Shown: one piece after another, positions 2,880 through 38,480 of the stretch
How positions within the stretch are numbered: the stretch's first letter is position 1
How the letters are laid out: every line of letters begins with the position of its first letter
Source of the DNA: Podarcis erhardii
Lineage: Eukaryota
DNA: 64,000 bases
NCBI GenBank assembly: GCA_964252035.1
Contig: OZ176211.1
Reading direction: 5' to 3' (one strand)
Made by a program: the position numbers and the translations under genes
Notes under the pieces: generated by a model
The model's input: only the letters and a program-made list of their open reading frames with translations
What the model was told of the DNA's origin: nothing
Database searches by the model: none

Positions 2880-3204
2880 GTAAGTACCACATTTAATGGG
2901 CAGGTTTATTTCACAGTTGTCCGGTTTTCAGACCAATAAAATGGCTTTAGTTTACTTCTTGTACCACCTTGAATAAGTAGTACACTTATTAAATATCTTG
3001 GCCTTGGCAGCAGCAGAAAATGCAAAACACAGATCTTTTAACATACCTAGAGCTCAGATTCCATACTTGCTGCAGCATTTTGATCTTTCCGTTTCTAACT
3101 GTTTAATGGTCTGTGTGCCATATGAGACACGTGAGCCAAGCCTAGCTCAGTAATAATGCCAAGTTCCATTATGAAACACACAGGCAATTTTATCTTATCT
3201 TCTT

Positions 3205-3628
3205 TGTCAGAGAACTGCCATCGGAGCCAGAGGGAGAGGGAGGGCTCCAGAGGGATTACGGAGAGCGTCCCAGGAGGGAGAGAAGCAGCCCATCTTTTGG
3301 GGAGGGAAATAAGCGTAGCACCAGTGGAGAAGGGGGAATCAGCGAGGTGGCTCCATGACTCCTCGCCAGAGACCAGCGGGGAGAGCACGGGTCCTCCGCT
3401 GCCCACACCCTCCCTGTGCAGAAGGCTTCCGCGCAGGGAGAGTAGGCGGAGACAAGGTGTCAAAGAGCTTCTTTGCTGGAAGAAGTTCAAGAAACGCCCA
3501 CTGACGGATTCTGCCAGCGACTGAGACAGCCACGGGTGAGTGGCTGTCCAGACAGAATAGGGTTCACCCAGGTAACTCAGCCAGGTGTGGCGACAACTTA
3601 CGCACGAGCAACCCCTAGAACCATTACA
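3205..3628. mobile_element. Solo LTR, family A copy 1 (424 bp)
   Basis: TGTCAG...TTACA termini with a perfect 5-bp TSD TTCTT (3200-3204, 3629-3633). Both ends and the interior are homologous to 8969-9424. Orientation unresolved. Confidence 0.85.
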
Positions 3629-3736
3629 TTCTTCTTAAAAGAAGCAAGCAAATGTATCATGGTCATGTTCTTGGATTTCAAATCTATGCACATGCACTCA
3701 AATGAATTTATTTGTGATTTTTTTCTCTCTCTTTAG

Positions 3737-3811
3737 GTGTCCATGAAAGCTATTCGATATGAAGTTTCACCAGACAAAAAATACGGACTTTTTGCCTATG
3801 AAATTGCGCCG
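3737..3811 (+). CDS. DPP6: DPP6 internal coding exon (75 bp): VSMKAIRYEVSPDKKYGLFAYEIAP
   Basis: CTTTAG acceptor ending at 3736; GTAAGT donor at 3812. Phase 0/0, in frame with the previous exon. Matches recalled DPP6 [25 protein letters not shown]. Too short for the ORF track. Confidence 0.93.
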
Positions 3812-8858: not shown

Positions 8859-8968
8859 CTTTTATGGTATGCAGAGGAGGAGGAAAATTCATGGAGGAGA
8901 GGGCTACCAGTGGCTACTAGCCAAGATACCTAGGCTCTGCCTCCACAGTTGGAGGCAGTAAGTACTTC

Positions 8969-9424
8969 TGTCAGGGAACTGCCATTGGCTCACGGGGGGA
9001 GAGGGGAAAAGCCGGATGGATTACAGAGAGCCCCCAAAGATCGTGGGAAGCAGCTCCTCCTCAGCGGAGGAGAGTAACTACGCTTCCAGCGGAGAGGAGC
9101 TTCAGGGCTCGGAGGAGGCGAGAGGGTGCCAGGACACCTTGCCTGGGCAAAGCGGGGAGGAGAGAGGTCCTCCGTTACCCACGCCCTCCTTGCGCAGTAA
9201 GCTTCCGCACCGAGAGGGGAGGCGCAGACTGGGCGCCAAAAAACCACTTTGCTGGGAAAGGTTTAAGGACCGCCCACTCACAGATTCTGCCAGTGAATGA
9301 GCCAGCCATGGGAGAGTGGCGCTCTGGACAGATAAAGTTTATTTTGGCATCACAAGCAAGGCTTCACAGCCGAGCAGGGAGGCATTTGCCTGCTTGCTCT
9401 CGAGAAACCCTTGGAACATTAACA
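8969..9424. mobile_element. Solo LTR, family A copy 2 (456 bp)
   Basis: TGTCAG...TAACA termini; 5-bp TSD with one mismatch (ACTTC 8964-8968, GCTTC 9425-9429). The interrupted CR1 supports the boundaries independently. Confidence 0.85.
9016..9300 (+). CDS. Putative LTR-internal ORF (94 aa; Ser/Glu-rich N-terminal half, Arg/Lys-rich C-terminal half), unknown function
   Basis: ATG to TGA lies wholly inside the solo LTR. The last 44 codons are 31/44 identical to the LTR at 3205-3628, with the same stop position. Expression not shown. Confidence 0.5.
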   Translation: MDYREPPKIVGSSSSSAEESNYASSGEELQGSEEARGCQDTLPGQSGEERGPPLPTPSLRSKLPHREGRRRLGAKKPLCWERFKDRPLTDSASE

Positions 9425-9834
9425 GCTTCCGAATACCAGTTGCTGGAAGCCACAGGAGGGGAGAGTGGCTCCTCCTGCTTGTGGCTTTCCCATAGGCATC
9501 TGGTTGGCCTCTGTGAGAACAGGATGCTGGACTTTAAGGGCCATCAGCCTGATCCACCAGGCTCCTTTTATGTTCTTAGTGTATTGGGGCATATTTTTTC
9601 AATGGAAGTCGCTTGGAGACCTTTTGGGTGGCAAGCGGCCAGTAAGTTTAATAAGTAATAAACAAACAATGTTGCTCTCCTCTGAGTCAGCCCCCCCCCC
9701 CCATATATCTTCCTGCCTTACTTACAACTAGTCTAAGGGACTGATGGTCTTGCCTGTCAGCTTCTCCGTCATTAGTCTCAGTGTTTTCCTTGTAGAACTC
9801 CACAGCAGGAGGCAGATGGGGAGAAAATTAGAAT

Positions 9835-38344: not shown

Positions 38345-38480
38345 CAGGCTTCCTCAACCTCAGCCCTCCAGATGTTTTGAGACTACAATTCCCATCATCC
38401 CTGACCACTGGTCCTGCTAGCCAGGGATCATGGGAGTTGTAGGTCAAAAACATCTGGAGGGCTGAGGTTGAGAAAACCTG
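38345..38480. mobile_element. Palindromic hAT-like MITE
   Basis: CAGGCTTCCTCAACCTCAGCCCTCCAGATGTTTT / AAAACATCTGGAGGGCTGAGGTTGAGAAAACCTG; degenerate 8-bp TSD AGTTAAAC/AGCTAGAC. Confidence 0.8.

Follow-up and report, generated by a model that had tools for sequence, protein, structure and literature searches.

An open frame in two Podarcis solo long terminal repeats as the probable end of a Tf1/sushi-type chromovirus Pol

Two solo LTRs in introns of DPP6

In this study, we analysed a window of 64,000 nucleotides of Podarcis erhardii DNA (GenBank assembly GCA_964252035.1, contig OZ176211.1), in which two solo long terminal repeats (LTRs) share a reading frame. We believe, with little doubt, that this frame encodes the C-terminal tail of a Tf1/sushi-type Pol, its last ~110 codons, and that this tail has been under selection. 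The features concerned are given below in window positions; P0002 is a natural open frame of that Pol, 1359 codons long, and PBS stands for primer-binding site.

3205..3628, plus strand: solo LTR copy 1, subfamily 1, with TG..CA termini and the duplication TTCTT at 3200-3204 and 3629-3633
3206..3524, plus strand: remnant of the Pol C-terminal frame in copy 1, covering U3 and the first part of R, with a frameshift near 3333 and no ATG
3390..3524, plus strand: final 44 Pol codons and stop in copy 1, with Pro/Ser-Pro, an Arg/Lys-rich block, L-L-C-W and P-L-x-D-S
3500..3510, plus strand: predicted self-primer in copy 1, at the U3/R border where the element RNA would begin, sharing bases with the L-T-D-S codons; it complements the PBS and co-varies with it
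3737..3811, plus strand: host exon of DPP6 (phmmer: DPP6 chains, E 6e-5; DPP10, E 0.14), with AG/GT borders
8969..9424, plus strand: solo LTR copy 2, subfamily 2, 456 bp, with TG..CA termini and the target duplication ACTTC/GCTTC (4/5 match)
8998..9300, plus strand: remnant of the Pol C-terminal frame in copy 2 (tblastn of P0002 residues 1269-1359 at 8998-9297), with an internal ATG at 9016
9166..9300, plus strand: final 44 Pol codons and stop in copy 2
9276..9286, plus strand: predicted self-primer, subfamily-2 variant, complement of the PBS

Both LTRs sit in DPP6 introns flanking the exon at 3737-3811, in the sense orientation to the gene. An earlier sequence-only reading had taken them for solo LTRs of two diverged subfamilies, and the TG..CA ends together with 5-bp target duplications at both sites bear this out. 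Its description of the shared frame was exact on recounting: 3390-3524 and 9166-9300 are each 135 nt long, with no indel, the TGA in the same place and 31 of 44 residues identical, and the 31 nucleotide differences fall at first, second and third codon positions in 8, 6 and 17 cases, respectively, with 10 codons differing synonymously. In the genome, the first look gave 3268 candidates for copy 1 and 1826 for copy 2; the best 40 full-length matches were 94-100% and 89-100% identical to them, respectively.

The frame is damaged in both copies. Copy 2 has a one-base shift within its first ~50 nt relative to its subfamily, and this makes its frame look as if it began at the internal ATG. This shift and the frameshift of copy 1 near 3333 together hid the frame that is open from the second base of the LTR. 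The 94-residue product that had been predicted can be read in copy 2 from the ATG at 9016, but not in copy 1, which has neither the ATG nor an intact frame. Copy 1 is 424 bp long, compared with the 435 bp typical of subfamily 1; L040, on another chromosome, is also 424 bp long and carries the same frame change (window 3330-3335), so that the two may form a small non-autonomous lineage or reflect a recurrent deletion. Copy 2 apparently lies within another short interspersed repeat, which continues on either side of it (window 8920-9560).

The element and the continuity of the frame with Pol

The LTRs belong to a high-copy Ty3/Gypsy chromovirus of the Tf1/sushi type. Among the 60 best LTR loci, 53 had 5-bp flanks matching at 4-5 of 5 positions, as expected of solo LTRs, and a few loci were joined to internal sequence. 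In 15 of the 20 fetched regions, LTR pairs 94-99.8% identical enclosed 2.7-5.2 kb of internal sequence. The recovery of full-length elements, which had been proposed as the way to classify the LTRs, gave a Ty3/Gypsy chromovirus with protease (PR), reverse transcriptase (RT), RNase H (RH), integrase (IN), SH3, chromodomain, polypurine tract (PPT) and PBS. Pfam finds these six protein domains in P0002, in the order PR-RT-RH-IN, and the chromodomain lies C-terminal to the integrase (PF00385, E 6e-10; HP1 match, E 3.5e-7) with a confidently predicted fold (predicted local distance difference test score, pLDDT, 85-90). Gag carries a CCHC knuckle, and pol is in the -1 frame relative to gag in L098, L102, L106, L109 and L111. 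Takifugu sushi-ichi and Schizosaccharomyces pombe Tf1 are likewise organised, with gag and pol in different frames, the order PR-RT-RH-IN and a chromodomain after the integrase; they also share, in the part of the source available to us, a self-priming PBS, TG..CA LTRs and a 5-bp target duplication (bioRxiv 2022.12.06.519325). The lizard element differs from them in about 210 added residues past the chromodomain, of which the 3' LTR encodes half, and in the loss of the aromatic cage. Its closest named protein relatives are from Podarcis muralis, near-identical DNA occurs in sequencing runs of 8 organisms at a share of at least 0.2, and the element family itself may already be catalogued.

A young subfamily (L166-L170, L189-L200) has 396-bp LTRs that are 99-100% identical, many pol frames of 1376 codons and its own variant of self-primer and PBS. 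Contig C19 (30 Mb) holds about half, counted by eye, of the 150 chromodomain-plus-tail matches listed, often nested or in duplicated blocks, and it resembles a W-type or heterochromatic chromosome.

A purine tract precedes the LTR in L004 and L046 and gag follows it in L003, all on the plus strand, so that the polarity of the LTR is plus and the frame is sense. It had been observed that neither window LTR has a plus-strand AATAAA and that TTTATT lies at 9338, which the recount confirmed, and it had been suggested that the frame might run antisense to the element; the plus-strand location of PPT, PBS and gag-pol contradicts this. Selection could in principle act on the antisense frame that shares third positions with the sense frame, because it is open in 100 of 126 main-family copies, 9 of 16 copies of the older family B and 7 of 7 young copies, and 29 of its 44 residues are identical in the window pair. 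However, open copies are more frequent for the sense frame (122 of 126, 11 of 16 and 7 of 7, respectively), which is continuous with pol, ends at a fixed stop, and is accompanied in family B by a plus-strand AATAAA in R/U5. A sense ORF is expected to cast such an antisense shadow, and we consider an antisense target of selection scarcely credible.

The continuity with pol can be followed in the full-length copies, where the pol frame passes the chromodomain and then the PPT, enters the 3' LTR and stops there. In L004 and L061, which have 3' LTRs of the copy-2 subfamily, one unbroken frame leads from the chromodomain (Pfam Chromo, E 2e-6) via the PPT to the stop in the LTR. The last residues of P0002, encoded within the 3' LTR, correspond to the copy-1 peptide: tblastn places its residues 1251-1307 at 3206-3397 and its residues 1297-1359 at 3333-3521, the terminal peptide being 87% identical across 63 residues. 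Among 50 distinct loci (L061-L113, 53 minus 3 duplicates), 37 had a single frame from chromodomain to LTR stop, interrupted by one internal stop in 3 cases. These loci were fetched with a fused query and are biased to in-frame copies; the other 13 were left out on account of a frameshift, a truncation or a failure to match the pattern. An independent search with the Pfam SH3 model gave young-subfamily members L166-L170 with the same tail design; about 75 of the 150 matches listed, counted by eye, have the 1376-codon frame, and five were translated. Integrase, chromodomain and tail are also linked in the Logan protein P0003 and in P0004, a UniRef protein of Podarcis. The spans from LTR start to stop in the main subfamilies (331, 310 and 301 nt) differ by whole codons, and in L142 of family B the LTR frame is likewise that of pol, interrupted at the junction by a stop. 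Because pol extends into the 3' LTR, each solo LTR holds a copy of the coding tail.

The frame had been proposed to encode a free-standing accessory protein of the MMTV sag or nef type, with its own ATG or a spliced RNA. The ATG of the 94-residue ORF is indeed present in 30 of 30 subfamily-2 LTRs, the ORF is intact in 16 of 30 fetched copies, and its C-terminal block is under purifying selection. However, the ATG is subfamily-specific: it is missing in 30 of 30 subfamily-1 LTRs, in family B and in the young subfamily. Moreover, no stop separates the frame from pol, and the frame precedes the predicted RNA start. In MMTV and HIV, sag and nef are separate genes with their own start codons and mRNAs whose coding sequence overlaps the U3 of the 3' LTR; the lizard frame, unlike them, is fused to pol. 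The frame belongs to an ORF that is already known, as the in-frame C-terminus of Pol/integrase, which speaks against the accessory protein, and we regard such a protein as highly improbable.

A Pol that ends in the LTR is of a known kind, since plant chromoviruses already extend pol into the 3' LTR. In the parts available to us of the reports on the plant CRM group A and the Reina-clade elements Bingo1-4/7, the pol ORF reaches into the 3' LTR, and the integrase C-terminus in its U3 is thought to aid targeting (PMC3059260, PMC3605345). Bingo has the same layout as the lizard element, with a group II chromodomain before the PPT followed by the LTR extension (PMC3605345, in part). In CRM-A, so far as the available text tells, the LTR part substitutes for the chromodomain, whereas the lizard element keeps a chromodomain upstream of the PPT; the plant elements are also tRNA-primed, and those parts of the reports mention no FxGF motifs (PMC3059260, PMC3605345). 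Membership of CRM group A was considered for the lizard element and rejected, the chromodomain being kept before the PPT and the PBS being self-complementary to the LTR, where CRM group A has a tRNA-Met PBS. The copies of the lizard element are scattered across many contigs.

The Podarcis muralis UniRef models P0005, P0128 and P0130 join the LTR peptide to a phospholipid-transporting ATPase, a SEC7 protein and a Gla protein, respectively. We believe that these fusions are probably annotation artefacts, exonisation being the other option; the Pol tail in the LTR accounts for false peptides in automatic Podarcis gene models. Elsewhere in the window, several dispersed repeats of ~250 bp lie in both orientations (15494-55167), and an inverted repeat with 59-bp arms (38345-38480) resembles a miniature inverted-repeat transposable element.

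Self-primer, RNA start and selection on the tail

The sequence behind the 5' LTRs is the complement of an LTR-internal 11-mer (window 3500-3510 and 9276-9286). In 28 5' LTRs, the variable dinucleotides of primer and PBS matched in 25 cases (13, 7, 4 and 1 for four variants, three of them main ones) and disagreed in 3, a fourth main primer variant with a double change matched its PBS in 3 of 3 5' LTRs, and the primer-PBS pairing closes a predicted fold. The 5' LTRs of L152 and L154 combine a subfamily-1 primer with a subfamily-2 PBS and are possible recombinants or intermediates. In Tf1/sushi self-priming, the RNA supplies the primer with its own 5' end, as far as the available part of the source describes it (bioRxiv 2022.12.06.519325). 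The transcription start is thus predicted ~8 codons ahead of the stop of the LTR frame, and this position would make the frame U3, untranscribed from the own promoter of a solo or 5' LTR. The frame would, very probably, be translated only from the 3' LTR of the full-length RNA. No RNA data set was listed among the sequencing runs with near-identical DNA; from four runs presumed to be RNA, the contigs obtained were fragmentary, came from many diverged copies and do not bear on start sites or splicing. The terminal L-x-D-S codons are doubly constrained because they overlap the RNA self-primer, and the middle residue (T, P or S) follows the primer variant.

The window pair gave a dS of 0.84, a dN of 0.16 and an omega of 0.19 by NG86 (binomial p 0.001 against the neutral synonymous share; p 0.011 for third positions); this segment was picked after the fact, and the family-wide tests agree with it. 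Between subfamilies, the pairwise dN/dS values of the chromodomain, the pre-LTR tail, the Ser/acidic U3 half and the basic U3 block were 0.12, 0.18, 0.55 and 0.18, respectively (natural copies, 454 distant pairs out of 666, the basic block without its primer codons). With a codon model on a fixed tree, the corresponding omegas were 0.26, 0.54, 0.59 and 0.40, all of which contain neutral change after insertion, and an omega of 1 was rejected for each region (2dlnL 78, 45, 20 and 32, respectively). The basic C-terminal block is under purifying selection, and in family B it persists at 40-50% identity along with L-C-W and P-L-x-D-S. Constraint is loose in the Ser/acidic LTR half, a spacer of 55-65 codons whose length changes by whole codons. 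The sequence-only reading had placed the frame under purifying selection while the elements were active; this holds for the basic block, and the N-terminal half turned out to be such a spacer.

The tail could also be translated as part of Pol and yet be kept mostly for DNA or RNA reasons, that is, as U3 promoter and self-primer, with FxGF motifs (described below) that do not bind LEDGF/HRP2. The end of the frame does overlap the self-primer (dS 0.54, dN 0.04), the U3 dS of 0.68-0.88 is below the chromodomain dS of 1.28, which suggests an overlapping DNA constraint, and the tail is predicted to be disordered. However, synonymous divergence in the basic block is five times the non-synonymous even with primer codons excluded, and L-C-W, the basic run and P-L persist in family B although identity has fallen to ~40-50%. 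These results, with the motif residues kept ahead of the LTR, make this combined reading unlikely.

The tail ahead of the LTR and its possible function

About 210 residues past the chromodomain were predicted to be disordered, with mean pLDDT of 50.4 and 46.6 in two folds in which only the chromodomain was confident. Between chromodomain and PPT, this tail carries two motifs, each with a hydrophobic-x3-F stretch, 8-10 acidic Ser/Thr residues and FxGF. According to the available parts of two sources, in a TND-interacting motif (TIM) an acidic linker of 8-16 residues joins a helix to FxGF, and FxGF marks partners of LEDGF/HRP2 (PMC9987994; bioRxiv 624023). Both FxGF motifs were present in 35 of 37 tails and a single one in the remaining two; the F, G and F residues were kept in 36-37 of 37 tails while the linkers vary, which again argues against a constraint on nucleic acid only, and the helix anchor residues were conserved in 34-37 of 37, often with Trp at the first anchor. 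A helix was predicted at motif 1 (pLDDT ~65) and none at motif 2. One pattern recovered exactly the known motifs when applied to constructs of JPO2 (two), POGZ and KMT2A, and it matched twice in each of P0001-P0004; among 100000 shuffles of the tail, 114 gave one motif and 0 gave two. The more distant subfamilies L164, L179 and L186 have the same motif layout with different linkers. The young subfamily retains both FxGF, with different anchors, and the strict pattern fails to match there.

The motifs resemble those of JPO2, POGZ, KMT2A and IWS1 (TIM, or IBD-binding motif) in the X-x3-F helix, the acidic Ser/Thr linker of 8-10 residues and FxGF, and they stand in tandem as in JPO2. Unlike the host motifs, they are encoded in the integrase of a mobile element and frequently have Trp at the first anchor. 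The host genome contains LEDGF-family exons. Lentiviral integrases contact LEDGF via their folded core and not via a motif of the FxGF type. In the literature searched, which covered few subscription papers, FxGF/TIM motifs were not reported for any retrotransposon integrase, nor was this lizard tail described, and FxGF with transposon and integrase was found only for host proteins.

The chromodomain itself is altered in this clade: residues one and three of the HP1 cage are missing in 53 of 53 chromodomains. Three unrelated chromovirus fragments in the same loci have both cage residues and no FxGF tail (L061:4914-5315, L174 and L185); as chromovirus families of one genome, they offer a natural control for insertion-site studies. 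Chromodomains of group II, which lack the cage, had previously been known from plants only, in the part of the report available (PMC3605345).

Overall, the best explanation is likely a Pol tail that runs through the PPT into the 3' LTR and probably acts as an arm for nuclear import and chromatin tethering. The LTR-coded part would serve as the disordered arm of the integrase. By analogy, the Arg/Lys block in the LTR would, somewhat more probably than otherwise, be a nuclear localisation signal (NLS), a DNA- or nucleosome-binding element, or both. The integrase of Ty1 likewise has a long disordered tail with basic clusters, short host-binding motifs and a bipartite NLS with a targeting domain, and it differs in being from a Copia element, in binding the Pol III subunit AC40 and in a tail that is not LTR-encoded, as described in the available part of the source (PMC7459421). 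The helix, acidic linker and FxGF may bind the TFIIS-N-terminal-type domain (IBD) of LEDGF/HRP2 and so tether the integration complex to transcribed chromatin, a possibility that we put a little short of even. Such a tether would replace the reading of H3K9me by a chromodomain without an aromatic cage. We speculate, more tentatively still, that this recently active clade may have swapped heterochromatin reading for mimicry of host motifs, with the cage lost and two LEDGF/HRP2-type motifs and a basic block gained.

Several points weigh against this explanation. The FxGF motifs lie outside the 64-kb window, in full-length copies, and the pattern that finds them was composed after the sequences had been seen. 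L142 and L143 of family B show only the first FxGF motif, the remainder being frameshifted, and proteins other than LEDGF/HRP2 may be the partners of acidic FxGF stretches. The contrast of cage and tail is one between two clades and does not represent independent events. The tree-wide omega of the pre-LTR tail is far above its pairwise value (0.54 and 0.18), which places its constraint mainly in the motifs, although changes after insertion raise omega too, and the RNA start rests on the covariation of primer and PBS. No homologue of the tail was found beyond lizard-like records, in libraries poor in eukaryotic repeats: a profile search of 1.84 billion representatives gave 6 matches, all lizard-named or unnamed relatives, the pre-LTR tail gave nothing under E 1.4 in a PDB sequence search, an ESM Atlas feature search on the tail gave no usable match, and Pfam assigned no family to the LTR peptide alone. 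Resemblances between the basic block and CENP-C, MLV ET-binding or cyclin-docking motifs were considered and dropped. The flanks of 60 LTR loci (GC 0.43, CpG observed/expected 0.33, 0 of 60 CpG-island-like) are close to the window average and uninformative on gene-body targeting.

The overlap of pol with the 3' LTR, which was known from plant chromoviruses, now appears in a vertebrate clade of the Tf1/sushi type. To the question of how vertebrate chromoviruses choose their insertion sites, this lizard clade offers a sharp, testable candidate answer, with thousands of datable insertions in one genome. If the proposed binding is true, no LTR retrotransposon before it would have been found to share the tether of lentiviruses, which it would reach through a different, convergent binding mode.
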